From an uncultured Acidobacterium sp. (GTDB taxonomy: Bacteria; Acidobacteriota; Vicinamibacteria; Vicinamibacterales; UBA2999): a DNA stretch of 57,345 nt. Location of the stretch: the NCBI GenBank assembly GCA_964355095.1, contig CAYHCX010000017.1, positions 1 through 57,345 of the forward strand. The letters run 5' to 3'. Position 1 is the stretch's first letter. Each line of letters starts with the position of its first letter. Position numbers and translations under genes: made by a program. This document shows positions 3,693-56,097 of this stretch, piece after piece. Under the pieces are notes generated by a model. The model saw only the letters and a program-made list of their open reading frames with translations, had not been told where the DNA came from and ran no database searches.

Positions 3693-3710
3693 CTCCCCAA
3701 GAGTTTTTTC

Positions 3711-6132: not shown

Positions 6133-6152
6133 GCCGGATCCGAGACTCATAC

Positions 6153-40174: not shown

Positions 40175-40182
40175 GTGACGAC

Positions 40183-40950
40183 ATGAAGGTGGTCATTCTG
40201 GCGGGCGGGCTCGGCACGCGGATCGGCGAGGAAACGTACCTCAAGCCGAAGCCGATGATCGAGATCGGCGGCAAGCCGATTCTCTGGCACATCATGAAGA
40301 TCTACTCGTCGCACGGGCTCAACGAGTTCATCATTTGCCTGGGCTACAAAGGCTACGTGATCAAGGAGTATTTCTCGAACTACTTCCTACACACCTCCGA
40401 CGTGACGTTCGACATCCCGCGGAACAAGATGGAAGTGCACCACAACAACGCCGAGCCGTGGCGCGTGACGCTGGTCGATACCGGCGAGCAGACCATGACG
40501 GGCGGTCGCTTACTGCGGGTTCGCTCGTTTCTTGACGAAGAGGATTTTTGCTTTACCTACGGCGACGGCGTCAGCGACATCAACATCACCGAGCTTATTG
40601 CGTTTCATAAGGCGCAGGGTACGCTGGCCACGGTGGCGGCCGCGCAGCCGCCCGGGCGGTTCGGCTCGCTCAACATTGCCGGCACCAAGGTCGTGAACTT
40701 CGACGAGAAACCGGTCGGGGACGGCGGCTGGATCAACGGCGGCTTCTTCGTGCTATCGCCCAAAGTGATCGATTACCTGGAGGGCGACGACACGGTGTGG
40801 GAGCGCGACCCGCTCGAGCGCCTGGCGGCCGAGCAGAACTTGTCGGTGTTCCTGCACAAGGGCTTCTGGAAACCGATGGACACGCCGCGCGACAAGGCGG
40901 CCCTCGAGGAGTTGTGGGCGACCGGCGCGCCGTGGAAAACATGGAGCTGA
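40183..40950 (+). CDS. rfbF: Glucose-1-phosphate cytidylyltransferase
   Basis: MKVVILAGGLGTRIGEETYLKPKPMIEIGGKPILWHIMKIYSSHG...TYGDGVSD...EKP..DGGWINGGFFV. 255 aa. Confidence 0.9.
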   Translation: MKVVILAGGLGTRIGEETYLKPKPMIEIGGKPILWHIMKIYSSHGLNEFIICLGYKGYVIKEYFSNYFLHTSDVTFDIPRNKMEVHHNNAEPWRVTLVDTGEQTMTGGRLLRVRSFLDEEDFCFTYGDGVSDINITELIAFHKAQGTLATVAAAQPPGRFGSLNIAGTKVVNFDEKPVGDGGWINGGFFVLSPKVIDYLEGDDTVWERDPLERLAAEQNLSVFLHKGFWKPMDTPRDKAALEELWATGAPWKTWS

Positions 40951-42173
40951 GCTGTCGGTCGTGCGGCGCTCAGCTGCAACAGACGTTCGTGGACCTCGGC
41001 GTCTCGCCGCTGGCGAACTCGTACCTGGAGCCGGATCAGCTGTCGCGCATGGAGCCGTTCTATCCGCTGCATGCGTACGTCTGCGGCCAATGTTTCCTGG
41101 TGCAGGTCGGCGAGTTCCAGAGTCCCGAGGCGATCTTCGGCGACTACGCCTACTTCGCGTCGTACTCTGACAGCTGGCTGGCTCACGCGCGGTTGTATGC
41201 CGGCCGGATGCGCGAGCGGCTGTCGCTCGGCACGACGAGCCAGGTCGTCGAGATCGCCAGCAACGACGGCTACCTGCTGCAGTACTTCAAGGAGCACGAC
41301 ATTCCCGTTCTCGGCGTCGAGCCGGCCTCGAACGTCGCCGCGGTCGCGATCGAAAAGGGCATTCCGACGGAGATCGCGTTCTTCGGCGAGACGACGGCGC
41401 GGGCCCTCGCCGCGCGCGGCTTCTCCGCCGATCTGCTGCTCGGCAACAATGTGCTCGCCCATGTGCCGGCGCTCAACGACTTCGTGGAAGGCATGCGCAT
41501 TATGTTGAAGCCCTCCGGAACCCTCACCATGGAGTTTCCGCACCTGCTGCGACTGATGGAGGGTAGTCAGTTCGACACGATGTACCACGAGCATTTCTCG
41601 TATCTGTCGATGATCGCCGTCGAGTCGCTGTTCGCGCGGCACGACTTGGTGATCTTCGACGTCGAGGAGCTGCCCACACATGGCGGCTCGCTGCGCATTT
41701 ACGCCCGCCATGCGGCCGACACGGCGCGGCCGGTGACCGACGCGGTGGCGCGACTCAAGGACGTGGAGCGCGCGAACGGGCTGGCGACGCCGGCGGCATA
41801 TGCGTCGTTCACCGAGCAGGTCAAGACGGTGAAGCGCGGGTTGCTGCAGTTCCTCATCCAGGCGAAGCAAGAGGGCAAGACCGTGGTTGGCTACGGCGCG
41901 CCGGCGAAGGGCAACACGTTGCTCAATTACTGCGGCGTCGGCACCGATTTCGTCGATTACACGACCGACCGCAGCCCTCACAAACAGGGGCGCTTCCTGC
42001 CGGGCACGCGCATCCCGATCTTCGCGCCCGAACGCATCCGCGAAACGCGTCCTGATTACCTCCTGATCCTGCCGTGGAATCTCAAGGACGAAATCTGCGA
42101 GCAAATGTCGTACGTGCGCGAGTGGGGCGGACGCTTCGTCGTGCCGATTCCGACGCTGGAAGTGCTGGCGTGA
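40941..42173 (+). CDS. NDP-hexose C-methyltransferase (TylCIII-type), paralog of 24448
   Basis: CRSCGAQL...SPLANSYL...CGQCFLVQV, FGDYAYFAS, VVEIASNDG, HEHFSYLS, VGYGAPAKGNT. Overlaps the rfbF 3' end by 10 nt. Confidence 0.85.
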   Translation: MELSCRSCGAQLQQTFVDLGVSPLANSYLEPDQLSRMEPFYPLHAYVCGQCFLVQVGEFQSPEAIFGDYAYFASYSDSWLAHARLYAGRMRERLSLGTTSQVVEIASNDGYLLQYFKEHDIPVLGVEPASNVAAVAIEKGIPTEIAFFGETTARALAARGFSADLLLGNNVLAHVPALNDFVEGMRIMLKPSGTLTMEFPHLLRLMEGSQFDTMYHEHFSYLSMIAVESLFARHDLVIFDVEELPTHGGSLRIYARHAADTARPVTDAVARLKDVERANGLATPAAYASFTEQVKTVKRGLLQFLIQAKQEGKTVVGYGAPAKGNTLLNYCGVGTDFVDYTTDRSPHKQGRFLPGTRIPIFAPERIRETRPDYLLILPWNLKDEICEQMSYVREWGGRFVVPIPTLEVLA

Positions 42174-42180
42174 GCATCCC

Positions 42181-43215
42181 ATGATCTCGAGAGTTCTGGT
42201 AACTGGTTCCGAAGGCTATATCGGCTCGGTGATGGTGCCGATGCTCCTCGCCGAGCAGTTCGAGGTGGCCGGGCTCGACGTCGGCTTCTACGCCGACGGC
42301 AATCTCACCGGTGACGCGACGCGCGGCTATCCGGTGATCGCCAAGGACGTTCGCGATGTGACCGCGAAGGATCTGGACGGCTTCGACGCCGTGATTCACC
42401 TGGCAGCGCTCAGCAACGATCCGCTGGGACATCTCGACGAGGCGCTGACCTACGACATCAACTTCACCGGATCGGTCCGCATCGCAAAGGCGGCGCGGTC
42501 GGCCGGCGTCCGCCGCTTCATTTTCGCGAGCTCGTGCTCGCTCTATGGCTTGTCGAGCAAAGTGCTCATCGAGAGCGATGCCGCCAATCCCCAGACCGCC
42601 TACGGTCGATCAAAGGTGATGGCCGAGGAGGCGATTGGGCAGCTGGCGACCGACACTTTCAGCCCGACGTTCATGAGGAATGCGACCGCCTACGGCGTCT
42701 CGCCGCGGATGCGGTTCGATCTGGTGGTCAACAGCCTCGCCGGTTTCGCGCACACCGAGGGCGCGATTCGCATCATGGGCGACGGCACCCCGTGGCGGCC
42801 GCTCGTGCACATTCGCGACATCAGTGCCGCGTGTATCGCCGTCCTGAGGCAAGACCAATCCGCGATCCATAACCAGGCGTTCAACGTTGGCGACGATCAC
42901 GAGAACTATCAAGTGAAGACGATCGCCGAGCGGATCCGGCAGCAGGCGTACCCGGCGTGCGCGATCACCGTCGCCCAGCAGAATGCCGGCGATACCCGCG
43001 ACTACCGCGTCGGCTTCGGCAAACTCAAAGAGCGCCTGCAGTTCGCGCCGGAGGTGAGCCTCAACCAGGGCGTGGACGATATCCATCGGGCCTACGCGAA
43101 CATTCCGCTGACGGCCGGGCTCTTCGACCATCGCCTCTATACGCGGCTCAAGCAGATTCAGTGGCTGCAACAGCAACGCCAGATTGACCCGGCGCTGCGG
43201 TGGGCCGGACAGTGA
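42181..43215 (+). CDS. NAD-dependent nucleotide-sugar epimerase/dehydratase (extended SDR)
   Basis: VLVTGSEGYIGS, ASSCSLYG, YGRSKVMAE. Confidence 0.85.
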   Translation: MISRVLVTGSEGYIGSVMVPMLLAEQFEVAGLDVGFYADGNLTGDATRGYPVIAKDVRDVTAKDLDGFDAVIHLAALSNDPLGHLDEALTYDINFTGSVRIAKAARSAGVRRFIFASSCSLYGLSSKVLIESDAANPQTAYGRSKVMAEEAIGQLATDTFSPTFMRNATAYGVSPRMRFDLVVNSLAGFAHTEGAIRIMGDGTPWRPLVHIRDISAACIAVLRQDQSAIHNQAFNVGDDHENYQVKTIAERIRQQAYPACAITVAQQNAGDTRDYRVGFGKLKERLQFAPEVSLNQGVDDIHRAYANIPLTAGLFDHRLYTRLKQIQWLQQQRQIDPALRWAGQ

Positions 43216-43763
43216 CGGTCGAGACCGCACCGATTGCCGGCGCGGCGCTCGTGACCTTTCCAGGCTCGGCGGACCATCGAGGCTCCTTCGCGCGGACGTT
43301 CTCGGTCGAGGTTCTCGAGCAGCTCGGGCCGGGCCGAAGGGTGATCCAGTCGAACCATTCGATCACGCACGCGCGAGGCGCGATCCGTGGCATGCACTAC
43401 CAGTTGCCCCCTCATGCGGAAATCAAACTGGTGCGGTGCATTCACGGCGCCGTCTTTGACGTGATCATCGACCTGCGCGCCGGTTCGCCGACGTTGTTGA
43501 AATGGTACGGGGCGGTGCTCAATGCCGACAACCGGCGCACGATGTTTGTGCCCGAAGGCTGTGCGCATGGCTTTCAAGTGCTCGAGCCGGACAGCGAACT
43601 GGTCTACTTTCACACGGCGCCGTACAGCCCGCCGCACGAACAGGCCGTGCGCTACGACGATCCGGCGGTCGGCATTCAGTGGCCGCTGCCAGTGTCGGAC
43701 GTCTCCGATCGCGACCAGCGCCATCCACTGGTCGGCGGCGATTTTTCCGGCATCGTCGTCTGA
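43200..43763 (+). CDS. NDP-4-keto-6-deoxyhexose 3,5-epimerase (RmlC family)
   Basis: DHRGSFARTF, IRGMHYQ, KLVRCIHGAVFDVIIDLR, FVPEGCAHGF, YD. Start is GTG 43200 or GTG 43212. Confidence 0.85.
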   Translation: MGRTVTVETAPIAGAALVTFPGSADHRGSFARTFSVEVLEQLGPGRRVIQSNHSITHARGAIRGMHYQLPPHAEIKLVRCIHGAVFDVIIDLRAGSPTLLKWYGAVLNADNRRTMFVPEGCAHGFQVLEPDSELVYFHTAPYSPPHEQAVRYDDPAVGIQWPLPVSDVSDRDQRHPLVGGDFSGIVV

Positions 43764-43779
43764 CGCCGAGAGGACCCAC

Positions 43780-44742
43780 ATGAAGACCGACAAGCAGTAT
43801 CTCGAGGAAGAAGCGCAAGCCTTCGATCAGCGCATTTCGACGCGCGTCGAATCGGGTTATGTCGCCGATCTCCGCCGCGCCGTGAAGTGCGATTACTTTT
43901 ACAAGAGCTTCTGGCGCGAACCGCATTTCATCAAGCTTTACCTCGGCTGGATCGTCGACGGCATTCTCGAACTGCTCAAGACCCACGTCGGTCCCGGCGC
44001 GCGGATTCTCGACGTCGGCTGCGGCGCCGGTTACATGTCGCTGGAGTTCGCCCGCAACGGCTACCATGTGACGGCCATTGACATTTCTGAGGCGTGCATC
44101 ACGACGGCGCGCGAGGTGCTCACAGACAATCCGTACAAGGCCGGGTTCGGGTCGCTGGAATATCACGCCATGCCTTTCGAGGCGGTGGAGGGGCGGTACG
44201 ACGTGGTGATGTTCTGCGTGTCGATGCATCACCTCAGCGACGTGCAGGCAGCCGTCGACAAATCGGTTTCGATGCTGGCTCCGGGCGGCCATCTGATTTG
44301 CTACGAGCCGTGCCACGATCGATTCGAGCGGAAGGACGCCGCGCAAGTGGCGTTGATCCGCGGACTGATGTCGATTGCCGGTCTCTGGTTCGACCCGTCG
44401 GAACCGGGTGAGGCGACTCGCAGCGAAGCGGCGCTCAGCACCTACATCGACGATGTCCGCACGGAGTATATGACCGAGCGCGACAAGAACGAACCGGGCG
44501 GGCAGTCGCCTCACGACCTGTCGGCCGACGGCGAGCAGATCCTGGCCGCGTTGCGATCGCGCCTGACCGAAGTGGCGTTCCGGCCCGGATGCTCATTCAT
44601 CTACCGGCTGGTTGGCGGCCTGCGCGGGCCCGAACAGGTGGTGCACGATCTCGCGACCTTCATCGCTCAATACGAGCGCCTGATGGTGAGCGAAGGGGCG
44701 CTCAATCCGAACATGTTCTTTTTCGCCGGCCGAAAGCCGTAA
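43780..44742 (+). CDS. Class I SAM-dependent methyltransferase
   Basis: ILDVGCGAGYMS, VTAIDIS, VVMFCVSMHHL. Confidence 0.8.
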   Translation: MKTDKQYLEEEAQAFDQRISTRVESGYVADLRRAVKCDYFYKSFWREPHFIKLYLGWIVDGILELLKTHVGPGARILDVGCGAGYMSLEFARNGYHVTAIDISEACITTAREVLTDNPYKAGFGSLEYHAMPFEAVEGRYDVVMFCVSMHHLSDVQAAVDKSVSMLAPGGHLICYEPCHDRFERKDAAQVALIRGLMSIAGLWFDPSEPGEATRSEAALSTYIDDVRTEYMTERDKNEPGGQSPHDLSADGEQILAALRSRLTEVAFRPGCSFIYRLVGGLRGPEQVVHDLATFIAQYERLMVSEGALNPNMFFFAGRKP

Positions 44743-44751
44743 CCGGACTCG

Positions 44752-45522
44752 ATGAAACTGACAATTGATCTGGACGCGGGGCGCGTCGTGGTCGACGACA
44801 ACGGCCGCGAGCAGATCCTCCCAATTGGATCGCCCGACGCGTTCGCGGCGATCGCCAAGGCCTACATCCGCGCGGGCTGGGACACCAAGTACGTCTACAG
44901 CTTTACCTGGCTCGGCCGGCCAATCATCCAGTTGCCGGACGACATGATTCGGCTCCAGGAGATCGTCTACGCCGTCCAGCCAGACGTCATCGTTGACATT
45001 GGCGTGGCGCACGGCGGCTCGCTCGTGTTCTTGGCGAGTCTGTGCAAGGCGATGGACCGCGGCCGCGTCGTCGGCGTCGACATCGAGATCCGTCCCCATA
45101 ACCGCGCCGCCATCGAAGCGCATCCGATGTTCAAATGGATCACCCTGATCGAGGGTGACTCGATCAGCGCCGCGGCGTCGGACCAGATTCGCGCCCAGCT
45201 GGCGCCCGGCGACCGCACACTGTTTCTCCTCGACGGCCGCCATACGCGCGACCATGTTCGCGCCGAGCTCGAGCTCTACGCACCGCTCGTCAGCGTCGGC
45301 TCCTACATCGTCGCGATGGACGGCATTCAGAAAGACATGGTGGGCGCGCCGCGATCGAGCCCGGATTGGGCGACCAATAACCCGACGGTCGCGGCGATCG
45401 AGTTCGTGCGGGACCATCCCGATTTCGTGCTCGAAGATCCGCCGATCCCGTTCAACGAAGGTACGGTCACCGTCCACGTCGTCACCTACTGGCCCCAGGC
45501 ATTCGTGAAACGCATCCGCTAG
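44752..45522 (+). CDS. CmcI (cephalosporin hydroxylase)-family methyltransferase, sugar O-methyltransferase-like
   Basis: YSFTWLGRPIIQLPDDMIRLQEIVYAVQPDVIVDIGVAHGGSLVF, typical of the CmcI fold family. Confidence 0.75.
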   Translation: MKLTIDLDAGRVVVDDNGREQILPIGSPDAFAAIAKAYIRAGWDTKYVYSFTWLGRPIIQLPDDMIRLQEIVYAVQPDVIVDIGVAHGGSLVFLASLCKAMDRGRVVGVDIEIRPHNRAAIEAHPMFKWITLIEGDSISAAASDQIRAQLAPGDRTLFLLDGRHTRDHVRAELELYAPLVSVGSYIVAMDGIQKDMVGAPRSSPDWATNNPTVAAIEFVRDHPDFVLEDPPIPFNEGTVTVHVVTYWPQAFVKRIR

Positions 45523-45523
45523 C

Positions 45524-47038
45524 GTGAGTCGTTCGCGCAGCGCCAACAACATCCTTTTCAACCTCGCCGGCCAGTCGATGCTGGTCGGCGTGAGTTTTCT
45601 TGCGTTGAAGTACGTGTTCGTGCGGCTCGGCGACGACGCGGTCGGCGTGATCTTTTTTTCGCTGACGATGAGCGCCGTGCTGAGCGCGCTGCTGGAAATG
45701 GGGATTAGCGCCGCGACCACGCGTGAGGTCTCCGGCCATCTGGAGCGCGAGCCGCTCTACGTCCATGACCTGCTGCGGACCACGTCGCTGTTCTTCTGGA
45801 GCGCCTACCTGGTGCTCATCACCATCGTCTGGCTGGTCGCGCCGCTGCTGGTGCAGCGCTGGATCGTGCTGACGTCGCTCGACCAGCCGACAGCGACGCT
45901 GACGCTTCGGATCCTCGGGATTGGCGCGCTGCTTGGCTTGCCGCGGTCGCTGTATGTCAGCCTGTTTCGCGGCCTGCAGCGCATGGACGTCAACAACGTG
46001 GTCGATCCGGCAACCGCAGTGGTTCAACAGGTCGGGATCATCGGCATTCTGGCCGCCGGCGGTGGGCTGGTCCACGTCGCCACCTGGTTGACGGCGACAT
46101 TCGCGGCCGGCGTCCTGGCATATATCTGCGTGGCGTCCCGCTTCGTGCCCGTTGCCGCGCTGGTGCCGGGCTATTCACGATCGGTCGTCAGCCGGAATCT
46201 GCAGTTCTCGACGAGCATGATGGCCATCTCCGTCTTGTCGATGATTCATACCCAGGCCGACAAGCTGGCGATCAGCAAGCTGCTGCCGCTCGGCACCCTC
46301 GGGTATTACAGCGTGTCTTACGGCCTCCTGACACGCGCGTCATTTGTGACCGGCGCGATCTCGCAGGCGGGCTTTCCCGTGTTCTCCGCCGAGTCGGCCA
46401 GCGGTGGCGGCGGACTGCTGGCGGCGTACCGGAAGTTCCAGGACCTGGTGTGTTTCACGGCGCTGCCGATCTTTGCGGCGGTCATTTTTGCGTCGTTGCC
46501 GCTGTTTACGTTCATCTTCAACGCCGACATCGCACACCTGTTGTTCCTGCCGACCGTGTTCCTGGCGATGGGCTTCTACATGAACAACGTGTTGACCATC
46601 CCGTACATGTTATCGCTCGCGGTTGGACGGCCGGATATTTCCGCGCGGTCGAATTTCCTGGCGTTGTTCGTAGTCCTGCCGGTGACGCTATGGCTGGTCT
46701 ACTACGACGGGCTGCGCGGGGCGGGATTGTCGTGGGTAGCGTACCATGTCTTTGCTTACGCCTATGCGTTGCGGCGCATCTGCGCGGAATGCCTGCACAT
46801 TTCCTATCTCAGCTGGTTCCGGCACCTGGGCCGAAGCGGCGGGTGGGGCGCCGCGGTCTACGGCGTCGCCTGGGGTTTGGTGGCGGCGGGAGGGGTGTAC
46901 TCGTGGCCGCGGCTGGTGACGGCGTATGTGCTCGGTTCCGTGGCTTTTGTGGCCGGATCGTGGTGGCTGGTCGAACCCGAGACCGTCCGCGCCGTGCGGG
47001 TCTCGAGCCGACGACTCTTGACGCGCTTGAACCTCTGA
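45524..47038 (+). CDS. wzx: Wzx-type flippase (MOP superfamily polysaccharide biosynthesis protein)
   Basis: 504 aa with about 12-14 helices. N-terminus NILFNLAGQSMLVGVSFLALKYVFVRLG. GTG start 2 nt after the upstream stop. Confidence 0.8.
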   Translation: MSRSRSANNILFNLAGQSMLVGVSFLALKYVFVRLGDDAVGVIFFSLTMSAVLSALLEMGISAATTREVSGHLEREPLYVHDLLRTTSLFFWSAYLVLITIVWLVAPLLVQRWIVLTSLDQPTATLTLRILGIGALLGLPRSLYVSLFRGLQRMDVNNVVDPATAVVQQVGIIGILAAGGGLVHVATWLTATFAAGVLAYICVASRFVPVAALVPGYSRSVVSRNLQFSTSMMAISVLSMIHTQADKLAISKLLPLGTLGYYSVSYGLLTRASFVTGAISQAGFPVFSAESASGGGGLLAAYRKFQDLVCFTALPIFAAVIFASLPLFTFIFNADIAHLLFLPTVFLAMGFYMNNVLTIPYMLSLAVGRPDISARSNFLALFVVLPVTLWLVYYDGLRGAGLSWVAYHVFAYAYALRRICAECLHISYLSWFRHLGRSGGWGAAVYGVAWGLVAAGGVYSWPRLVTAYVLGSVAFVAGSWWLVEPETVRAVRVSSRRLLTRLNL

Positions 47039-47047
47039 TGATATGCT
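47018..47047 (+). promoter_or_regulatory. Sigma70-like promoter candidate: TTGACG - 18 nt (with TGn) - TATGCT
   Basis: -35 at 47018-47023 inside the wzx 3' end, TG at 47039-47040 and -10 at 47042-47047. It precedes the AT-rich 89-bp gap before the 47128 gene. Confidence 0.4.
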
Positions 47048-47127: not shown

Positions 47128-48363
47128 ATGAAAGTCTTCATCACCGAAGACGACATGTGCACAACCCAGAAATTGAATCTGGCTCGCGTCCAGCGCTGGC
47201 TCGAGGCCAACGATGCGTTGGTCGTCGAGACGCCGGCTGAGGCGGACAAGATTCTGTGCATGACGTGCAACGGTTGGTCCCTGCTCGAAGAGCGGTCGTA
47301 CGAACGCATCGCCCAGCTCGACGCCGAGTTCCACGAGAAGATGATTGTGATGGGCTGCGTGGTGGATTCCCACGCGGGCAAGGTCGCGGCGCGCTTTACC
47401 GGTCCGACGGTCCGGACCAAGAGTGACGGCCCGTTGTCGTTCGCAGGCCTCGAGCCGTTGTTCCCGGAGTTCAAGACGCGCCTCGAGCAAATCCCAGCGC
47501 AGTCGGTGTTCCGCCGCCGAGAAGACTATCGCGACTACAACCTGTCGAAGCGCTTCATCAACATTTCGGAAGGGTGCTCGTTCAGCTGTTCGTTCTGCAC
47601 CCACAAGCCCGGCCTCGGCCCGCGCCGTAGCCGCTCGATGGACGACATCCTCGCGCAAGTCGAGCAGTGCGTGAAAGAGGACGTGCGCGTCATCAACCTG
47701 ATGGGAATGGAGACCGCCCTTTACGGGATCGAAGTCGGCTCTTCGTACCCGAAGCTGCTGAAGGCGATCCTCGAGTTGAGCGACGCGTATGAGATCCATG
47801 TCGCGCAGTTCAATCCCGAAGGGGTCCATAAGTATTACGACGAACTGCTGCCGCTGCTGCAGAACACGCGGGTCTCGGATATTCAGGTGCCGTGTCAGTC
47901 GACGTCGACGCGGCTGCTCGCGATGATGAAGCGGAAGAATCATACCGAAGAGGTCGGCACCTTCATGACCCAGGTGCGGGCCGCGAATCGACGCGCCGTG
48001 CTCCGTACCGACCTGATTCTGGGATGGCCGACCGAGACGCCTGAAGAGCGGAAAGCGTCGCTCGACTTCGCCGGCACCTATTTCGATGAGATCGCCACGT
48101 ACACAATCGAGTTGAGCCCCGACCTGCCGGCGTGGAAGTATCAGGATCAGGCGTCGTCCCCTGAGGATCTCGCCAAGATTCTCAGGGAAAGCCGCCAGTA
48201 TCTGCGCGCGAACTTCAACGTGGTGGCGCATTCGGGCCAGCAGGACGACAGCTCGATGGCCGACGTCGAAGAGCAGCGGAAGCGGATGCGCGCGATCAAA
48301 TGGGCTGCCGCGCCGGTGGCCCTGGGCGGTTCCAACGATCACGTAGCTGCGGACCCACGCTAA
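47128..48363 (+). CDS. MiaB/RimO-like radical SAM enzyme (methylthiotransferase N-domain plus radical SAM core, no TRAM domain)
   Basis: Three N-domain cysteines at the expected spacing (DMCTTQ, LCMTCNGW, VMGCVV). CX3CX2C = CSFSCSFC at 47575-47598. The C-terminus is short and acidic or disordered rather than TRAM-like. Confidence 0.75.
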   Translation: MKVFITEDDMCTTQKLNLARVQRWLEANDALVVETPAEADKILCMTCNGWSLLEERSYERIAQLDAEFHEKMIVMGCVVDSHAGKVAARFTGPTVRTKSDGPLSFAGLEPLFPEFKTRLEQIPAQSVFRRREDYRDYNLSKRFINISEGCSFSCSFCTHKPGLGPRRSRSMDDILAQVEQCVKEDVRVINLMGMETALYGIEVGSSYPKLLKAILELSDAYEIHVAQFNPEGVHKYYDELLPLLQNTRVSDIQVPCQSTSTRLLAMMKRKNHTEEVGTFMTQVRAANRRAVLRTDLILGWPTETPEERKASLDFAGTYFDEIATYTIELSPDLPAWKYQDQASSPEDLAKILRESRQYLRANFNVVAHSGQQDDSSMADVEEQRKRMRAIKWAAAPVALGGSNDHVAADPR

Positions 48364-48451
48364 GCGAACCCCAACCGCTGCCGGTCGCGTCTGAGAAGTG
48401 CCGTGTGTACCGGCGCTTTCGCGACCGGAGCCCGAGGATGTCCAGACCTCC

Positions 48452-49426
48452 ATGTCCGAGTCACTTTCACAACTTGCCTGTCCGGAACACCACCACCTGC
48501 TCACACGAGTTGGTGATGAATTGCAGTGCCCGAAGGGTCATAGCTATCCCATCGTGCGTGGCATCCCGCGATTCGCGGGCAACGACCCCTCAGTGACGAC
48601 GTTCGGCGACCAGTGGAATTTTTTCAACTGGACGATGTTCAAGCGGCATTGGCTTGAGTACTACGTCAAGAACACCTTCGGCAACGAAGGCACCGATGTC
48701 TTCAAGGGCAAAGACATTCTGGACTGCGGCTCCGGCAGCGGCGCCATCAGCAAGTGGATGGTCGAGTACGGCGCCGAGCACCTCTGGGCCCTCGAGCTGA
48801 GTCATTCCGTCGACGGCAATATTCGCCAGAATCTGCGCGACTTGCCGAACGCCGAGATCGTGCAGTGCGACATTTCGAAACCGCCGTTTGCGCCGAATGC
48901 GGGAGGCGACCTGGTGGTCTGTCAGAACGTGATTCAGCACACCAAGTCGGTGAAGGAGACGGCCCAGGCGCTCTGGACCGTCGTGCGCCCCGGCGGCGAG
49001 TTCGTGTTGACCTGCTACATGGCCAACGACGAGCCAGGGATGCTGCGCTGGTTGCGATGGCAGTGGTTCCGCGCGTTGCGAGGGACCCTCAGCAGCATGC
49101 CGGGGAAAGTAGTCTGGGCGTATTCGTGGCTGATGTCGCACCTGGTGCCGATTCCGGTTCTCGGCCGCCTGTTGATCCTCAGTTACAGCGCGACGTGCGG
49201 TCCGGTATTTCCGGGACCCGACCGTTGGGCCCGAACGCGATACCAGACCTACGTGAATACGCACGACATGTTCGCGAAGCACTATCAACACTATCCAAGC
49301 CGGACGGAATTCCGGGCCCTCGTTGAGGGGCTGCAGCCGCCGCCGGCCCGCATCGATAACCTCGATTCCTTCTTCGGGTTTCCGACCGGGGAAGGTGTGG
49401 CCCTGCGGATCCATAAGGGCGTGTAA
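48452..49426 (+). CDS. Class I SAM-dependent methyltransferase with degenerate Trm112-like ribbon (paralog of 15932)
   Basis: CPEHHH...CPKGHSYPIVRGIPRF, ILDCGSGSGAIS, VVCQNVIQH. Start is ATG 48452 (alternative GTG 48398). Confidence 0.8.
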   Translation: MSESLSQLACPEHHHLLTRVGDELQCPKGHSYPIVRGIPRFAGNDPSVTTFGDQWNFFNWTMFKRHWLEYYVKNTFGNEGTDVFKGKDILDCGSGSGAISKWMVEYGAEHLWALELSHSVDGNIRQNLRDLPNAEIVQCDISKPPFAPNAGGDLVVCQNVIQHTKSVKETAQALWTVVRPGGEFVLTCYMANDEPGMLRWLRWQWFRALRGTLSSMPGKVVWAYSWLMSHLVPIPVLGRLLILSYSATCGPVFPGPDRWARTRYQTYVNTHDMFAKHYQHYPSRTEFRALVEGLQPPPARIDNLDSFFGFPTGEGVALRIHKGV

Positions 49427-49456
49427 CGCGAGGACAAAGGCGTCTAACGCGAGGAC
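49418..49456. repeat. 21-bp period direct duplication, GGCGTGTAACGCGAGGAC / GGCGTCTAACGCGAGGAC
   Basis: Read directly; 17/18 identical. The first copy contains the stop codon of the 48452 gene. Confidence 0.85.
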
Positions 49457-49510
49457 CGAGCGGTCCGGCGACACGGCCGGTCAGCCTGCCCGCCCCTTGC
49501 CCGTCATGCA

Positions 49511-50716
49511 ATGAGAGTGACTCTGGTTGTCGATCGGTACGCCCCGGAGGCTCGCTCCGCCGCGCATCTCTTTGAAGACCTCGCGCGTTCGCTGGCGGCG
49601 CGAGGGCACGACGTTCGGGTCCTCGCGAAGTATCCAGTCGAAAACCTGCCGGGTGCGTCGGGACCGCCGCCGCGGCGCGAAATTCGGGAGGGCGTGTCGG
49701 TGACACGATTGTCGAGCCCTCTAGGCGAGCCGCGCGCGACTTGGTTGCGCGGTGTCGATCATGCGCTGTTCGCCGTTCGCGTCTTCCTCCGACTGGCGTT
49801 TTTTCGCCGCCCGGACGTGGTCCTCGTGTACTCGCCCCCGTTGATGCTTGCCGGCGCCTGCGCGGCGTGCGATCTGCTGGGGCTGCCCGTCGTGATCAAC
49901 CTTCACGATTTGTATCCGCGGACCGCGATCGAGTTGGGCCGGTTGCGTTCACCGGCGCTGATCGCGCTGGCACGCCGGCTCGAGCGCTTCGTCTACAAAC
50001 ATGCACGGGCGTTAATCGTGCCCGCCCCTGAGAGCGCGACCTACCTGATCTCGTCTATGGGCCTACAGCCCGACAAAGTTTCTCTGGTTTACAACTGGGT
50101 CGAGACCGCCTCGCCGGATGCGACCGGCGGCGAGGCATTCCGGCGCTCGATTGGGCTGGATCCCGGAGCGTTTGTGGTGTCCTATGCGGGTCTGCTCGGC
50201 CTGGCTCAGGATCTGTCGGCGGTCATCGAGGCGGCCAGGCAGGCTCGAGATGACCGTCAGTTAGTCTTCCTGGTCATCGGCGAGGGGCCGCAACTCAACC
50301 GCTGGAAGGCGGAAGCGCAAGGTCTCGCAAATCTGCGCTTCCTTTCAACGCTGCCCAGGGACTGCTATTTTGATGCGCTGAAAGCTTCGGATATCTGCCT
50401 GCTGGCCCTCTCGGCGGACCTCAAATCACCCGCGATTCCCGGCAAGCTTCAGAGTATTATGGCGGCTGCCCGACCGGTATTAGCGATCGTGCCTTCCTCT
50501 TCGGCGGCGGCAATGGTCGTTGAGGAGTCGGCCTGCGGTGTCGTGAGCGCTCCAGGGGATGGAACCGCCCTCCTGGACGCGATGACGATAATGCGGCTCG
50601 ACCCCGACCTTCGCCGTCGCATGGGAGCTGCGGGACGCCGCTACGCCGGCGAGCATTTCGACTTGTCGCGGGCCGTCGATCATTTTGAGCGCGTCTTGAC
50701 GTCGACGAAGCATTGA
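49511..50716 (+). CDS. GT4-family glycosyltransferase (WcaI/WbuB-like)
   Basis: MRVTLVVDRYAPEARSAAHLFEDLARSLAARGHDV, and a C-terminal GKLQSIMAAARPVLA EX7E-like region. Confidence 0.85.
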   Translation: MRVTLVVDRYAPEARSAAHLFEDLARSLAARGHDVRVLAKYPVENLPGASGPPPRREIREGVSVTRLSSPLGEPRATWLRGVDHALFAVRVFLRLAFFRRPDVVLVYSPPLMLAGACAACDLLGLPVVINLHDLYPRTAIELGRLRSPALIALARRLERFVYKHARALIVPAPESATYLISSMGLQPDKVSLVYNWVETASPDATGGEAFRRSIGLDPGAFVVSYAGLLGLAQDLSAVIEAARQARDDRQLVFLVIGEGPQLNRWKAEAQGLANLRFLSTLPRDCYFDALKASDICLLALSADLKSPAIPGKLQSIMAAARPVLAIVPSSSAAAMVVEESACGVVSAPGDGTALLDAMTIMRLDPDLRRRMGAAGRRYAGEHFDLSRAVDHFERVLTSTKH

Positions 50717-50759
50717 GGGGCGCTGCCACGAGGCCGAGCTCAGCACTCAGGTAGATGCA

Positions 50760-52205
50760 ATGAGGCCACTGTCGCGCATCCGATTGATACAGAAAGTTGT
50801 GCCGCTGATTGGCGACGTCGCCATCTTCAGCGCCGCGATGCTGCTATCGATGTCGTGGCGCTCCGAGGTCAAGGAACCGAACGTCCTGTCGTTCCTGCCG
50901 ATCTTCGCAACCTGGATTGGCGTGTTGTACACCGCCGGTCTTTACGAACTCCGCATCGTCCGGGACTTCGTCCAACTGGTCGGCGGCCTGGTGTTGTCGG
51001 CAGTGGTCTGTTGGACGGTTGGCATCACCTACATCTACCTCCTGCCAAACTACCTGCCAATCGATTTCACACCGAAGACCATCCTGATCAGCACGGTGAT
51101 CATCGGCCACATCGGGATTCTCGCCTGGCGCCGCGCGGTGCTGACGATCTTCCGTTTCAACTTGCTCGACCTGCGAATTGTGATGCTTGCGGACGACGTG
51201 CATCACCGGTATCTGAGCGGCTCCTCCGAATGGTGCTTGCAGAAGCTCAACGTCGCCGATCATGTCAGCCGGGACGTCGATCTCCTCGTCGTCGACAGCG
51301 AATGGCAGCCCAAGGATTCACGGTTGGTCCGCGCGAGCCTGGCGCAGGCGATCAGTCTCGGCGTGCCCATTGCCAGCCTCGACGAATTCTACGAGTCGGT
51401 ATTCGGCAAAGTCTCGTCGAGCCACGCCAACGACCTCGGCTGGTTGATCAATCACGTGCTGTCCCGTCACGGGAGCTTGTATTTCCGCGCCAAGCGCGTC
51501 GTCGACGTGTTGATTGCGAGCGTGCTTCTGCTGGCGACCGCGCCCGTCATGGCGGTCACGGCTCTGTTGATCCTCGTGGTCGACCGCATCCCGCCGTTCT
51601 ACGCGCAAGAACGGGTTGGCTATCTTGGCGGCCGCTTCACTCTCCGCAAGTTCCAGACGATGAAACCTGGCGCTGATGCGCAGGGGCCCTTCGCCAAAGA
51701 GGCCGGCGCCGGCGATCCGCGCGCGACCACACTTGGCCGCTGGTTGCGTCGCTTCCGGCTCGATGAGCTGCCCCAGCTCTGGAACGTGTTGCGCGGCGAC
51801 ATGTCGCTGGTCGGCCCGAGGCCGGAATGGATTCGCGAGGTCGAAATCCTTGAACTCTCCGTGGCGAATTATCACGTGCGGCATCTGGTCCCGCCCGGTC
51901 TGACCGGCTGGGCCCAGGTGTATTTCCGCGCCACCAATGACGCGGCCGACTCCATCGAGAAGCAGCATTACGACCTCTACTACTTGAAACACTTCTCGCT
52001 GGCGCTCGACTTGTCGATCCTGCTGAAGACCCTGAGTCGAGTCCTAATTCGCGACTCGCGCGTGTCGACCCACCGTGATCCGTTTCCGTCCCGGCCTTTT
52101 CACGACGAGGTTCTCGATTCCGATGTTGCCCTAATCGTGGCGCGCAGCCGATCCGAAGTCGACGCGGCCATGTCCGGCGGCGCGACCATCTCGAAGATTC
52201 TGTAG
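50760..52205 (+). CDS. Polyprenyl-phosphate glycosyl-1-phosphate transferase (WbaP/EpsB-type bacterial sugar transferase), initiating enzyme
   Basis: N-terminal helices and a central linker. C-terminal catalytic domain KRVVDVLIASVLLLATAPVMAV...QERVG..G..F...KFQTM...DELPQLWNVLRGDMSLVGPRP. Confidence 0.9.
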   Translation: MRPLSRIRLIQKVVPLIGDVAIFSAAMLLSMSWRSEVKEPNVLSFLPIFATWIGVLYTAGLYELRIVRDFVQLVGGLVLSAVVCWTVGITYIYLLPNYLPIDFTPKTILISTVIIGHIGILAWRRAVLTIFRFNLLDLRIVMLADDVHHRYLSGSSEWCLQKLNVADHVSRDVDLLVVDSEWQPKDSRLVRASLAQAISLGVPIASLDEFYESVFGKVSSSHANDLGWLINHVLSRHGSLYFRAKRVVDVLIASVLLLATAPVMAVTALLILVVDRIPPFYAQERVGYLGGRFTLRKFQTMKPGADAQGPFAKEAGAGDPRATTLGRWLRRFRLDELPQLWNVLRGDMSLVGPRPEWIREVEILELSVANYHVRHLVPPGLTGWAQVYFRATNDAADSIEKQHYDLYYLKHFSLALDLSILLKTLSRVLIRDSRVSTHRDPFPSRPFHDEVLDSDVALIVARSRSEVDAAMSGGATISKIL

Positions 52206-52232: not shown

Positions 52233-52985
52233 ATGATGTATTCAGTCAGCAAGATCCTGCCGCTCTTCGTACTCCCGCTGGGTGTCGCGATTGTGCTGGT
52301 AGTTCTCAGCGTGATATTCCGCAAACGCTGGATGGGGATTGCGGCGGCTGGTATCCTGTATGTCAGCAGCACGCCGCTCGTCAGCAACGCCGCGCTCAGC
52401 GCCATCGAGGGCGACGCGGTGCGGCTGGCCGCATCGGCAGTGCCAACCGCCGACGCGGTCGTGGTGCTCAGTACCGGCCGGTCGCTGGCGCCCGGGCCGG
52501 CCCGGGTGAGCGAGTGGTCGGATCCCGATCGATTCTTCGCCGGCCTCGATCTGTATCGCGCCGGCCGAGCGCCGCTGCTGGTCTTCACTGGCGGGTGGTC
52601 GCCGGTGTTTCCTGACGTTCCGCTCGAAGGTGACGTGCTGGCGGGTCTGGCGCAGGAGTTGGGCGTGCCGGCGTCGGCGATCATGACCACTGGCCGTGTC
52701 GCCAATACCGAACAAGAAGCCGGCGCGGTCGGCGCCGATCTCAAGAAGCGCGGTGTCGTGTCCCCGAAGATTATCCTCGTGACCTCGGCCTTTCACATGC
52801 CGAGAGCGACGGGCCTGTTCCGGCGCGCCGCTCTCGAGGTGTTCGAGTTTCCCGTCGATTTCCGCGCGCAATCACGCGGCGTGCACTTGCTCGATCTGGT
52901 TCCCGACGCCGGCGCGTTCAGCCGTACGCACGTGGCGATCCGCGAGTTGTACGGGCGCGCGTATTACGCGATGGTGGGTTCCTGA
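52233..52985 (+). CDS. DUF218 (YdcF/ElyC/SanA-like) membrane-anchored protein
   Basis: N-terminal helices, ADAVVVLSTG, LLVFTGG, NTEQEA, ILVTSAFHMPRA. Confidence 0.8.
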   Translation: MMYSVSKILPLFVLPLGVAIVLVVLSVIFRKRWMGIAAAGILYVSSTPLVSNAALSAIEGDAVRLAASAVPTADAVVVLSTGRSLAPGPARVSEWSDPDRFFAGLDLYRAGRAPLLVFTGGWSPVFPDVPLEGDVLAGLAQELGVPASAIMTTGRVANTEQEAGAVGADLKKRGVVSPKIILVTSAFHMPRATGLFRRAALEVFEFPVDFRAQSRGVHLLDLVPDAGAFSRTHVAIRELYGRAYYAMVGS

Positions 52986-53046
52986 TCCGAACATTGGTCT
53001 TCGAAACTTGCGCCGGTCGCCTGCCTGGTGGCCGCCGGCCGGCCGG

Positions 53047-54222
53047 ATGATCAAAGTGCTGGTTGCGACCGGCGCCTATGCGCCGGAATTCAGCGCCGGC
53101 GGCCTGCAGACGCAGGCCGTGGCCGCCACCCTGCGCGGCCGGGCTGATCTCCGTGTCCTGACCACTTCTACCGATGCGCAGCTCAGCGCTCGAAGCCGTG
53201 TCGAGGGCGTGGCCGTTTCGCGCATTTACCTCGATGTCGCCAGCCTGGCGTCGCGTGGGCGCGCAGCGATTGCCATGCTCGCCGAATTGATCAACCTGGT
53301 GCCGCGGATCGACGTGGTGCACGTGCAGGGATATTCGGGCAAGAACATTCTGATTGCCGCCATCGCCAAGTTCTGCCGGCGGCCTCTGTTTCTGCATCTG
53401 CAGACCGCCAGACACGACGAGGCGGCGACGGTGAAGGCAAAGGGCCGCCTGGCGTGGTGGGCGTTCCGTTCGGCCGATCGCTATCTCAGCGTCAGCCGGA
53501 ACCTTCGCGACGCCTACCTGAGTGCGGGGCTGGCGTCCGATCGGGTTCGCCTCGTACCCAACGGCGTCGATCCGGCGCGGTTTGCTCCGGCCGCCGCAGA
53601 GGTAACGGTGAGTCTCCGGCGCGCGCTCGCCTTGCCTGAGACGAGGCCTATCGTTCTGTTTGTCGGCGTCATGAGGCCGGACAAACAACCGGACGTGCTG
53701 CTCGACGCCTGGATATCCCTCTCCACGGAGCGGCGTGCCGGGTCGACGCTCGTGTTCGTGGGAGCGACCAATCCAACGCTGTTCGAGCTCGAAGGGCGGC
53801 TCGTCGACCGCATGCAGGCGGCGGTGGTGGCGGCTGCCGGCCTTGGCGGTTCGGTCTTCTTTCGCGAGCCGACACCGCAAGTCGAAGATTACTTTCGCGC
53901 CGCCGACGTCCTCGTGATGCCGTCGGCACGGGAGGGTCTGCCGATCGTGCTGCTCGAGGGGATGGCCTGCGCGCTTCCCTGTCTCGCGTCGCTCCTGCCA
54001 GGCTCGACCGACGATATCATCAAGGACGGTGTTACAGGACGACTGGTTCCACCGGGAGACGTCCGTGCGCTGGCCGCAGCCCTCGCTGATGTCGTCGGCG
54101 ATCTGCCGGCTGCGGCCCGCATGGGTGAAGCCGCCCGGAGAGCGATTCTCCAACGTTTCACCATCGCTCACGTGGCCGAAGAATGGCTCGCCACGTACCG
54201 CGAGCTGGCTACCGCCCGCTAA
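53047..54222 (+). CDS. GT4-family glycosyltransferase
   Basis: IKVLVATGAYAPEFSAGGLQ, VLVMPSAREGLPIVLLEGMACALPCLAS (EX7E). Paralog of 56094. Confidence 0.88.
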   Translation: MIKVLVATGAYAPEFSAGGLQTQAVAATLRGRADLRVLTTSTDAQLSARSRVEGVAVSRIYLDVASLASRGRAAIAMLAELINLVPRIDVVHVQGYSGKNILIAAIAKFCRRPLFLHLQTARHDEAATVKAKGRLAWWAFRSADRYLSVSRNLRDAYLSAGLASDRVRLVPNGVDPARFAPAAAEVTVSLRRALALPETRPIVLFVGVMRPDKQPDVLLDAWISLSTERRAGSTLVFVGATNPTLFELEGRLVDRMQAAVVAAAGLGGSVFFREPTPQVEDYFRAADVLVMPSAREGLPIVLLEGMACALPCLASLLPGSTDDIIKDGVTGRLVPPGDVRALAAALADVVGDLPAAARMGEAARRAILQRFTIAHVAEEWLATYRELATAR

Positions 54223-54237
54223 CTGAATCGCCTGTTG

Positions 54238-55526
54238 ATGACCCATCGCCACGACATCATCTGCATCTCGTCGATCGACTGGGACTTCATCTGGCAGGGT
54301 CACCAGGAGATCATGTCGCGCCTTGCGGCGGACGGGCATCGGGTCTTGTTCATCGAGAACACGGGCGTCCGTCAGATTCGGGTCAGCGACGCCGGCCGCA
54401 TCCGCGCGTGCCTGATGAACTGGTGGCGAGGCACCAAAGGTTTCCGCGAAGAGCGGCTCAACCTGTTCGTGCTGTCGCCGCTCGTGGTGCCGCTGCGATA
54501 CTCGCGCATGGCGCGCTGGATCAACCGGGTGGTGCTGATGCGCAGCCTGACCCGGTGGATGCGCGCCACCGGCGTGGCCCGGCCAATCGTCTGGACGTTC
54601 CTGCCGACACCGCTCGCCCGCGATGTCATCGATCACCTCGACCCGGCCCTGACGATCTATCACTGCGTGGACGATTTTCGGCGAGCTCGACAGAGGCGAA
54701 ACGGATTGTCAGCAGCGAGGAACGGCTGTTCCGCGACGCCGATCTCGTGTTCGTGACCTCCGAGGAACTGCGCGTGCGTGCCAGCCGCTACTCGCAGCGG
54801 GTTCACCTCTTTCCATCGGGCGTCAGCCTCGAAGCGTTCGAACGTGATCACCTGGCCGTGCCGGACGATCTGCAGGCGTTGCCGCGGCCGGTCGCGGGTT
54901 ATGTGGGCGGTCTCCATCAGTGGGTCGATCAGGAACTGCTCGAGGCGGCCGCCACACAGCTGCCTGACGTGTCGTTCGCGCTGATTGGTCCCGCGCAAGT
55001 CGACATTTCGAAACTCGCCGCGCTCCCGAACGTGCATCTGTTCGGCCAGCGCCCGCACGCCGAGGTGCCGCGTTACATCAACGGGTTTGATGGCGGGCTC
55101 GTGCCGTATCGCATCAGCTCCTACACGGCGAACGTCTACCCGGCGAAGATGAACGAGTACCTGGTGCTGGGCAAGCCGGTGGTCGCGACGGATCTCGCCG
55201 AAGTCAGGCGATTCAACCGCGAGCACGGCGATCTGATTCGCACTGGCACCGACGCGGCGGGTTTCGCGGCCGCGATTCGTGCCGCCCTTGTACCGGCGAC
55301 GGCGGAGGAAATCTCGAGACGCCGCGATGCCGCGCGCGCGAACGGCTGGGATCAGCGCATTCGCGCGATGTTCGCGCTCATTGACCCCGCGGTTGACGCC
55401 AGGGACGCCGGCGCGCGCGGGTGGGAAGCGGGTCTGCGCGCGCTGTATTCGGTGGCACGACGCCGCACCGCGCAGGCGGTGCTCGCCGTGATGTTGTGTA
55501 TGTGCTTCTCTTCCAGACGCCGCTGA
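54238..55526 (+). pseudogene. GT-B glycosyltransferase disrupted by a -1 frameshift in a T4 run (54675-54678)
   Basis: Frame 1 gives MTHRHDIICISSIDWDFIWQGHQEIM...TIYHCVDDF. It continues in frame 0 as SASSTEAKRIVSSEERLFRDADLVFVTSEEL...GYVGG.... One extra T would restore a single ORF. The 3' end runs into the degraded DUF218 copy without a clean stop. Confidence 0.75.
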
Positions 55527-56097
55527 TTTGGTGGCTGGCCTCGCCGCTACGAGTCGCCCACCCGCCGCAACCGGCCGACGCGATCGTCGTGTTTGCCGGA
55601 GGCGTCGGAGAGTCCGGCAAGGCGATCCCGACCGCTTTTTCGGAGGCGTCGACCTATTGCAAGCCGGCAAAGCTCCACTGCTGGTTCTGACTGGCGGCGT
55701 TGTGTCGATGAATCCTAGAGTGGCGCTGGAAGGCGATGTCATGAAGAGCTACGCCTTGCGGTTGGGCGTGGCCGAGGAGCGCATTGCCACGACCGGCCTG
55801 GTGCTCAACACCCGCCGAGGAGGCGACGGCGGTGTCGAAGCTGCTCAACGACCGCGGGTTGGCCCGGGCGCGGGTGCTGCTGGTGACGTCCGCCTTCACA
55901 TGCAGCGTGCACAACGGCAGTTCGAGAGCCACAACCTCGAGGTCCTGCCGTTCCCCGTTGATTTTTTCGGCCGCGGATCGGGTGGTATCGGTTTCCTGAC
56001 CGTCATGCCCAGTCCCAACGCGCTCCGCAATTCGCAGGAAGCCGTTCGGGAGATGTACGGGCGCGCCTATTACCGGCTGGTGAACGCGCTGCCGTGA
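55443..56097 (+). pseudogene. Degraded second copy of the DUF218 gene (start codon lost, at least 3 internal frameshifts)
   Basis: Homology to 52233..52985 is spread over three frames. The pieces are ADAIVVFAGG (frame 2), DPDRFFGGVDLLQAGKAPLLVLTGG (frame 1), AEEATAVSKLLNDRGLARARVLLVTSAF (frame 2) and HMQRAQRQFESHNLEVLPFPVDF...REMYGRAYY (frame 1). ATG is replaced by CTG at 55443. Confidence 0.75.

Follow-up and report, generated by a model that had tools for sequence, protein, structure and literature searches.

A radical SAM enzyme of methylthiotransferase architecture without a TRAM domain, linked to CDP-hexose genes in an acidobacterial polysaccharide locus

Introduction

Which substrate is served by an enzyme that is built like a methylthiotransferase (MTTase), is devoid of the domain with which such enzymes hold RNA or protein, and is encoded within a polysaccharide locus? 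The question is raised by a stretch of 57,345 nucleotides from an uncultured Acidobacterium sp. (contig CAYHCX010000017.1 of assembly GCA_964355095.1; this whole stretch is referred to below as the window), in which the forward-strand open reading frame (ORF) 47128..48363 encodes, from an ATG start, a radical S-adenosylmethionine (SAM) protein of 411 amino acids. MTTases are described as three-domain enzymes forming four clades, with A37 of tRNA and Asp88 of ribosomal protein S12 as their only substrates (PMC2952846, PMC10702137). A search of the literature found no description of a TRAM-less or sugar-linked MTTase, nor of the gene combination reported here.

An enzyme with a glycan-related substrate, neither RNA nor ribosomal protein, is strongly supported because the gene order around it is conserved in more than 20 loci of Alpha-, Beta-, Gamma- and Deltaproteobacteria and five further phyla; the new substrate class proposed in the original prediction, which was made from the sequence, is well supported. 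As to chemistry, the reading favoured here, held with slightly less than even confidence and resting on sequence, predicted structure and gene neighbourhood, is that a two-cluster radical SAM enzyme with the MTTase fold would functionalize a C–H bond of a 3-C-methyl hexose linked to cytidine diphosphate (CDP), most plausibly by forming a C–S bond.

Domain anatomy and predicted fold

The assignment of 47128..48363 relies on Pfam, NCBIfam and Foldseek. An N-terminal MTTase domain (UPF0004, PF00919; residues 11-89, 47158..47394) is matched by Pfam with an E-value of 2e-6 and a score of 28.2 bits that narrowly exceeds the cut-off of 27, and is followed by a radical SAM core (PF04055; residues 144-315, 47557..48072; 1.1e-18). 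The original prediction had described three N-terminal cysteines and an intact CSFSCSFC motif. Every motif it quoted is found in the translation, namely DDMCTTQ (C11), MTCNGW (C47) and MGCVV (C77) in the first domain and EGCSFSCSFC (C150/C154/C157, a CxxxCxxC motif) in the second, and the six cysteines are invariant in the family described below. C11, C47 and C77 are putative ligands of an auxiliary [4Fe-4S] cluster, and C150, C154 and C157 would hold the SAM-cleaving [4Fe-4S] cluster. The protein thus has the three-cysteine N-terminal domain of MTTases, and its place in the radical SAM superfamily is supported by the invariant C150-x3-C154-x2-C157 spacing, the PF04055 match and the fold, the cluster itself being predicted.

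The third MTTase domain is missing, as had been claimed. Pfam detects no TRAM domain in the 411 residues even at E ≤ 10, alignments to the MiaB and RimO models of NCBIfam stop at about profile position 343 of about 429, ahead of the TRAM part, and the last 87 residues have no sequence match in the PDB better than E = 0.78. In an AlphaFold2 model based on 22 members of the family (predicted local distance difference test 85.5, predicted template-modelling score 0.83), residues 334-394 fold into three helices and one 3-residue strand (H334-341, H345-362, E366-368, H377-394) with no beta-barrel. A C-terminal helical region (residues ~330-394, 48115..48309) is accordingly delineated in place of TRAM on the basis of this secondary structure, its conservation and the lack of a PDB match.

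The best structural neighbours of the model by Foldseek are MtaB, MiaB and RimO, with template-modelling (TM) scores of 0.65-0.70. Of the proteins with solved structures, the one matched best by sequence is RimO of T. maritima, the S12 Asp88 MTTase (4jc0, 3.5e-33, query residues 27-338), with which the window protein shares the N-terminal domain, where C47 and C77 align with cysteines of 4jc0, as well as the radical SAM core with its motifs, at a TM score of ~0.66. The tRNA A37 enzymes MiaB, MtaB and e-MtaB (7mjv-7mjz, 9a6d) likewise share the two-cluster architecture and the fold, but unlike the window protein they carry TRAM. Placement against the canonical clades was made by NCBIfam equivalog scores, and these fall far below the cut-offs: 93 bits against 355 for MiaB (TIGR01574), 115 against 357 for RimO (TIGR01125), 112 against 357 for MtaB (TIGR01579) and 136 against 315 for the e-MtaB type (TIGR01578), the highest family-specific score; the subfamily model TIGR00089 gives 163 against 251. 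By these sequence scores, under every curated cut-off, the protein is not an orthologue of MiaB, RimO, MtaB or e-MtaB, and NCBIfam release 20 holds no dedicated model for a TRAM-less MTTase-like protein.

Two other radical SAM assignments were considered and rejected. A cobalamin-dependent (class B) enzyme would be expected to match PF02310, as the two genuine cobalamin-binding radical SAM proteins of the window do with the same Pfam approach; the 411-residue protein has no such match, and matches to cobalamin-dependent models cover its SAM core only (138-341). A SPASM/twitch enzyme is equally discounted, with no SPASM match and no conserved cysteine beyond C157 in the 22-member alignment.

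A conserved family and its distribution

A homologue search returned at least 120 proteins of 55-79% identity, the full-length ones having ~385-420 residues. Among the matches listed, TRAM is absent from 120/120, Radical_SAM is present in all and UPF0004 in nearly all. The protein therefore belongs, as judged from sequence, to a conserved family (clade A) and is not the product of a truncated gene. The six cysteines are invariant in 22 members of the family and also in 15 sequences spanning distant clades. The MTTase-type motifs of the SAM domain (NLMGMET, PxQSTSxRLLxxMxR and RTDLIxGWPTET) are conserved in the 22-member alignment, and the tail has its own signature, with G370-Q371-Q372 invariant in the same 22 proteins, the preceding H368 and S369 conserved in ≥90% of them, and HSGxQ kept in most distant clades.

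Named carriers include Azospirillum cavernae, A. griseum, Nisaea and other Alphaproteobacteria, Bowmanella denitrificans, Fluctibacter corallii and Paraglaciecola. Two scans with exact peptide patterns, covering one genome for each of 185,579 species and yielding counts that are lower bounds, recovered at least 10 loci (close family) and at least 11 loci, respectively. This sparse recovery shows that the radical SAM gene is accessory. Because of such rarity (10 and 11 of 185,579 genomes) and of the failure at every equivalog cut-off, it is unlikely, on sequence grounds, that 47128..48363 is the only miaB or rimO orthologue of its genome.

The neighbouring CDP-hexose genes in clades A and B

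The gene-neighbourhood survey called for by the original prediction was carried out by translating all reading frames of related loci and comparing them with the window proteins; for metagenomic members, gene calls and Pfam marks were read. Six genes upstream of the radical SAM gene in the window (40180-45522), all on the forward strand, recur beside its homologues. The first encodes a glucose-1-phosphate cytidylyltransferase, which makes CDP-glucose (40180..40950; TIGR02623 equivalog, 451 bits against 300), and adjoins the radical SAM gene in loci of both clades A and B. It is followed by a nucleoside diphosphate (NDP)-hexose 3-C-methyltransferase of the TylC3/TcaB9 type (40941..42173; Methyltransf_13/14, with the D-mycarose 3-C-methyltransferase 4rv9 as PDB match at 6.9e-85), another conserved partner. 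Next come a short-chain dehydrogenase/reductase (SDR) annotated as a C4 oxidoreductase in which the acid/base pair of dehydratases is missing, a partner in clade A only (42181..43215; best PDB match 6vo6, 5.9e-26), and the conserved RmlC-like NDP-4-keto-sugar 3,5-epimerase (43200..43763; PF00908, 5.6e-57; 155.6 bits with TIGR01221, just short of its cut-off of 155.75). The set is completed by a class I SAM methyltransferase specific to clade A (43777..44742; Pfam Methyltransf_23/25/11) and by a conserved methyltransferase resembling CmcI and rhamnosyl O-methyltransferases (44752..45522; PF04989, 6e-67), whose gene also marks the base cassette considered further on.

The full set of six partners stands beside the radical SAM gene in the window and at nine other loci (L001, L004-L006, L008-L010, L015 and L016) of Rhodospirillales-like Alphaproteobacteria, Alteromonadales and one gammaproteobacterial metagenome-assembled genome (MAG); loci on short contigs have only part of the set. 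The class I methyltransferase gene occurs in the window, L001, L003-L010, L015 and L016, where it often adjoins the radical SAM gene. Under the grouping defined in this analysis, co-location of the CDP-hexose cassette is complete in the window and nine clade A loci and analogous in 10 clade B loci.

The SDR was examined as a candidate for the missing CDP-glucose 4,6-dehydratase and rejected, since it reaches only 25.8 bits with TIGR02622 and is devoid of the Asp/Lys pair: where true CDP-glucose 4,6-dehydratases have ITSDK[CA]YE, the clade A enzymes have FASSCS[VL]YG...Y[AG][KR]SK (FASSCSLYG...YGRSK in the window). No CDP-glucose 4,6-dehydratase was found in the scanned ORFs of the window (18 ORFs between 11 and 49 kb by NCBIfam and Pfam elsewhere, a few ORFs remaining unscanned). 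The closest structure, 6vo6, is, to judge by the depositor's molecule name, probably that of Cj1427, a guanosine diphosphate (GDP)-heptose C4 dehydrogenase. The function of Cj1427, which yields a 4-keto sugar without 6-deoxygenation, has been described (PMC10680097).

The window alone has a Wzx-type flippase gene (45524..47038, forward strand; Pfam Polysacc_synt) inserted ahead of the radical SAM gene, after the cassette; no flippase separates the CmcI-like and radical SAM genes in the other loci compared. The spacer that follows is AT-rich and 89 bp long, and a forward-strand sigma-70-like sequence, TTGACG-18-TATGCT, lies at the wzx end and spacer (47018..47047). The case for a promoter-like region belonging to the gene is weak, one site being found against 0.4 expected.

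The original prediction had looked downstream for context, to a methyltransferase and glycosyltransferases. These genes exist (48398-52205), with a methyltransferase at 48398-49426 immediately 3′ of the radical SAM gene, a GT4 glycosyltransferase further on (49511-50716) and a Bac_transf initiating transferase (50760-52205), but they are not conserved next to the homologues and were discarded as functional partners. Because the informative neighbours are the six upstream CDP-hexose genes, a nucleotide sugar is indicated as substrate rather than a lipid carrier; of the substrates originally suggested, a sugar or a lipid carrier, it is the sugar that the neighbourhood favours.

A sister clade gives the same picture. 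When 1.84 billion cluster representatives were searched with a profile, 587 proteins were obtained at E < 1e-30, among which clade B comprises proteins of 376-403 residues, ~33% identical to clade A, alignable end to end and retaining the six cysteines. Clade B loci were found in Beta- and Deltaproteobacteria, Thermodesulfobacteriota, Cyanobacteriota, a Fibrimonadaceae MAG, Denitrovibrio and a Planctomycetaceae MAG. They carry cytidylyltransferase, RmlC-like, C-methyltransferase(-like) and CmcI-like genes and, in addition, a second SDR gene and one for a true CDP-glucose 4,6-dehydratase, which scores 490 bits with TIGR02622, so that a tight and ancient linkage to CDP-sugar genes is kept in both clades. 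In 9/10 loci a small methyltransferase gene lies 3′ of the radical SAM gene, directly or after one ORF, its products being 70-76% identical across phyla. The nearest solved relative of this methyltransferase is CalS11 (4.9e-36), a 3′-O-methyltransferase of rhamnose linked to thymidine diphosphate (TDP); since CalS11 methylates a nucleotide sugar before transfer, this partner argues for chemistry at the nucleotide-sugar level. Some clade B loci have further genes for tailoring enzymes, namely a SPASM radical SAM gene (~310 aa) directly upstream of the MTTase-like gene (L018:8997-9950, L020:7184-8116) and a PhyH-type dioxygenase gene between the MTTase-like and CalS11-like genes (L018:11185-11904).

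These neighbourhoods bear on the simplest alternative, namely an ordinary MTTase of tRNA or ribosomal protein that has lost TRAM, or uses a partner for binding, and sits in a glycan locus by chance. The fold and cysteine pattern are those of MiaB, RimO and MtaB, and JGI pipelines do label homologues 'tRNA A37 methylthiotransferase MiaB'. Even so, this explanation is very improbable. The protein falls below all equivalog cut-offs and lacks TRAM, and few of the species genomes scanned yielded a homologue (again as lower bounds), whereas miaB and rimO are, to our knowledge, near-universal in Proteobacteria. Moreover, linkage to the same sugar genes persists between clades that have diverged to ~33% identity, in many phyla.

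The radical enzyme as an addition to a widespread cassette

A search with the CmcI-like protein found at least 590 genome loci encoding relatives, in many phyla, and gene contents were counted in the best 80 of the 600 stretches listed. Besides the CmcI-like methyltransferase (80/80), these loci encode a TylC3-like 3-C-methyltransferase (67/80), an RmlC-like epimerase (66/80), a cytidylyltransferase (62/80) and a CDP-glucose 4,6-dehydratase (57/80). The MTTase-like radical SAM gene occurs in a single one, that of Bowmanella, and the clade A class I methyltransferase is likewise found in 1/80. There is thus a widespread CDP-6-deoxy-3-C-methyl-hexose cassette to which the radical enzyme is a rare addition, rare because 79 of the 80 best loci do without it, and one that arrives with a methyltransferase.

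Four of the five genes of this base cassette are present in the window; the 4,6-dehydratase is absent, and in its stead there are the radical SAM gene, the SDR that has 6vo6 as nearest structure and an additional class I methyltransferase. More generally, clade A loci, including the window, correspond to the base cassette minus the 4,6-dehydratase, a second SDR and a second C-methyltransferase-like gene, with the gain of the radical SAM gene, a different SDR and the class I methyltransferase. Clade B loci correspond to the full base cassette plus the radical SAM gene and the CalS11-like methyltransferase.

Vinelose is the 6-deoxy-3-C-methyl-2-O-methyl-L-talose of Azotobacter. The base gene set may plausibly fit a CDP-vinelose-type pathway, a link offered as a lead only, on the strength of the genes present and of their occurrence in Azorhizophilus paspali (L093). 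The set occurs also, for example, in Phenylobacterium (L066) and Fictibacillus (L104), within the series of loci L029-L108. Among known glycans, 3-C-methyl sugars are 'quite uncommon' (PMC9912281).

The wider TRAM-less branch

Beyond clades A and B, the remaining top matches of the profile search have 360-450 residues. Ten members sampled from the top 150 all have UPF0004 and Radical_SAM (10/10), and none has TRAM (0/10). Wherever the gene context could be read, it is glycan-related (6/6). The gene of P0181 directly follows Wzm/Wzt genes, the latter with a Wzt_C (cap-binding) domain; that of P0232 directly follows an ABC transporter in a locus with GT2 and DegT genes; that of P0230 is next to GT4 and GT2 genes; and that of P0121 stands in the row RmlC-like, MTTase-like, cobalamin-dependent radical SAM, CmcI-like, TylF-like. 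The gene of P0124 is near nucleotidyltransferase and SDR genes and directly before a Wzm gene, and that of P0136 directly follows a TylF-like methyltransferase gene in a NeuB locus. Fusions also occur: P0232 (842 aa) unites an MTTase-like module, an FkbM methyltransferase and a PKD domain, P0149 (1245 aa) has a MurB_C domain with two MTTase-like modules, and P0141 (1019 aa) has two tandem MTTase-like modules with a third radical SAM domain. A methyltransferase partner recurs in three forms, namely adjacent, nearby and fused.

From this survey a broader proposal can be put forward, speculative and rather less likely to be right than wrong: the large TRAM-less MiaB-like branch as a whole would be dedicated to carbohydrates, placing sulfur (as methylthio, or as a thiol that the partner then S-methylates) onto unactivated carbons of nucleotide sugars, and thio-methylated sugars would be widespread and overlooked in the glycans of environmental bacteria.

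The transporter genes next to some of these distant relatives suggest another possibility, that the enzyme acts after glycosyl transfer, on a lipid-linked or polymerized glycan, for instance to install a chain-terminating cap recognized by an ABC transporter. The neighbourhoods of P0181 (Wzm/Wzt with Wzt_C), P0232 (ABC transporter) and P0124 (Wzm) are compatible with it, as are the two ABC-transporter gene sets of the window (2409-6899) and the Wzx flippase gene immediately upstream of the radical SAM gene. We consider it improbable: within clades A and B the genes are nested among those of nucleotide-sugar enzymes and not among glycosyltransferases or transporters, and the clade B partner resembles CalS11, which acts on TDP-rhamnose before transfer.

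Proposed reaction and its alternatives

In the favoured reading, the substrate would be a CDP-activated, multiply methylated hexose built by the upstream genes. The cytidylyltransferase would supply CDP-glucose, from which the SDR, acting as a C4 dehydrogenase, would form a 4-keto sugar without 6-deoxygenation; 3,5-epimerization by the RmlC-like enzyme, 3-C-methylation by the TylC3-like enzyme and O-methylations by the CmcI-like and class I methyltransferases would then follow in this putative order. The short helical region that stands where MiaB, RimO and MtaB have TRAM, the domain holding RNA or protein, would close a small-molecule pocket, and this tail, together with many invariant Arg, Lys and His residues, would suit the nucleotide diphosphate of a CDP-hexose. 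Cleavage of SAM would generate a 5′-deoxyadenosyl radical that abstracts hydrogen from an unactivated carbon of the sugar, C6 and the 3-C-methyl branch being candidates. The new bond would be completed at the auxiliary cluster, most plausibly as C–S, either by direct introduction of SCH3 or by introduction of SH that the partner methyltransferase then methylates.

C–S bond formation is ranked first because all close relatives whose function is known insert sulfur, and the closest solved folds found by Foldseek include sulfur-inserting enzymes. LipA and BioB, which are weaker structural neighbours, likewise bring sulfur from an auxiliary Fe-S cluster into an unactivated C–H bond of substrates other than RNA; they differ from the window protein in having other auxiliary-cluster domains and motifs, no UPF0004 and no link to a sugar pathway. 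Several observations weigh against the proposal. Genes for a sulfur donor were not found in the loci. A canonical MTTase supplies its own methyl group, so that SCH3 transfer does not call for the constant partner methyltransferase, which would in part duplicate a complete MTTase and may signal other chemistry. A separate C4 reductase is absent in clade A, which leaves the proposed pathway incomplete, and the UPF0004 score barely exceeds its threshold. Finally, in Azospirillum cavernae the radical SAM gene, although beside a cytidylyltransferase gene (L002), is ~148 kb away on the same contig from the rest of the cassette (L046).

The main rival is radical chemistry without sulfur on the same CDP-hexose, the auxiliary cluster serving as Lewis acid or electron acceptor. 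Dehydrogenation, dehydration, epimerization or formation of a C–C or C–O bond could be envisaged, for example on an O-methyl or C-methyl group provided by the partner methyltransferase. There is precedent for radical SAM chemistry on sugars in the diol dehydratase AprD4 (6fd2), in DesII and in BtrN. DesII acts on a TDP-sugar, whereas the substrates of AprD4 and BtrN are aminoglycoside intermediates in free form. Of the sugar-acting enzymes, AprD4 and OxsB are among the structural neighbours of the model, far below the MTTases. As the partner methyltransferase is always present, the methyl need not come from the radical enzyme, and the SPASM and PhyH enzymes of some clade B loci, which likewise functionalize C–H bonds, suggest extensive oxidative tailoring. 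Moreover, bacteria of this kind are not known to have an S-methyl sugar, and the single methylthio sugar named in a 2023 review of glycan structures belongs to mycobacterial lipoarabinomannan (PMC9912281). Set against this, MTTases are by a wide margin the closest relatives in sequence and fold, and no clade deviates in the three auxiliary-cluster cysteines or in the SAM motifs of MTTase type, whereas AprD4, DesII and BtrN have no MTTase three-cysteine N-terminal domain and show far weaker similarity (E 3e-10 against 1e-19). Sulfur-free chemistry is on balance a serious contender but appreciably less likely than C–S bond formation.

Other features of the window

The two cobalamin-binding radical SAM genes mentioned above (PF02310 and PF04055) lie at 22749-24314 and 33892-35562, which brings the number of radical SAM enzymes in the locus to three; the product of the latter gene is nearest the model of Sden_1168-type P-methyltransferases, far under its cut-off (183 of 575 bits). 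A further sugar C-methyltransferase, of the Methyltransf_13/14 type, is grouped with an RmlD-like reductase and a UDP-GlcNAc 2-epimerase at 24448-25713, 25557-26618 and 26621-27856, which suggests a second branched-sugar pathway in the same locus.

Export components in the ~55-kb glycan region comprise two ABC-transporter sets (2409-4448 and 4837-6899), a GNVR (Wzz-like) protein (11199-12416) and the Wzx flippase (45524-47038), so that predicted components of ABC-dependent and Wzx-dependent export are both found in one region. A DDE_3/HTH transposase gene on the reverse strand (21586-22701) interrupts an otherwise co-directional polysaccharide locus. Towards the end of the window, a DUF218-GT4 pair is tandemly duplicated and diverged (52233-54222 and 55528-57272; GT4 54% and DUF218 45% identical, the second DUF218 being shorter), and a glycosyltransferase appears to be split over two frames (54183-55526 and 54235-54756) into an N-terminal part and a Glyco_trans_1_4 C-terminal part, by frameshift or sequencing error.

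The class I methyltransferase at 15932-16909 begins with a Trm112-like zinc ribbon, matched by NF038101 over residues 6-52. The methyltransferase immediately 3′ of the radical SAM gene (48398-49426), also of class I, has an N-terminal cysteine motif, CPEHHH...CPKGH, suggestive of the same zinc-ribbon architecture, no profile having matched the motif. Four large ORFs with coding-type G+C content at third codon positions (GC3 > 0.72) have no Pfam match, at 35584-37620, 8547-10898 (reverse strand), 191-1594 and 14561-15931, the largest encoding 678 and 783 residues; the two that were scanned with NCBIfam (35584-37620 and 14561-15931) have no match there either.

Significance

The protein follows the MTTase plan without TRAM and under the curated cut-offs; a new substrate class is well supported, and the chemistry proposed for it is putative. 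A clade without the macromolecule-binding domain, locked into CDP-sugar pathways, would extend two-cluster chemistry to small carbohydrates, and would lead one to expect in these glycans a sugar modification that has yet to be observed there. For radical SAM enzymologists it would offer a soluble, small-molecule system in which to study the chemistry of the auxiliary cluster. The gene would also serve as a marker of unusual, heavily methylated, branched sugars in the O-antigens or exopolysaccharides of Azospirillum, Nisaea, Alteromonadales, cyanobacteria and numerous uncultured lineages. As cultured carriers exist (Bowmanella denitrificans JCM 13378, Fluctibacter corallii AA17 and Azospirillum cavernae K2W22B-5), the question of what this family does to its sugar is directly testable.

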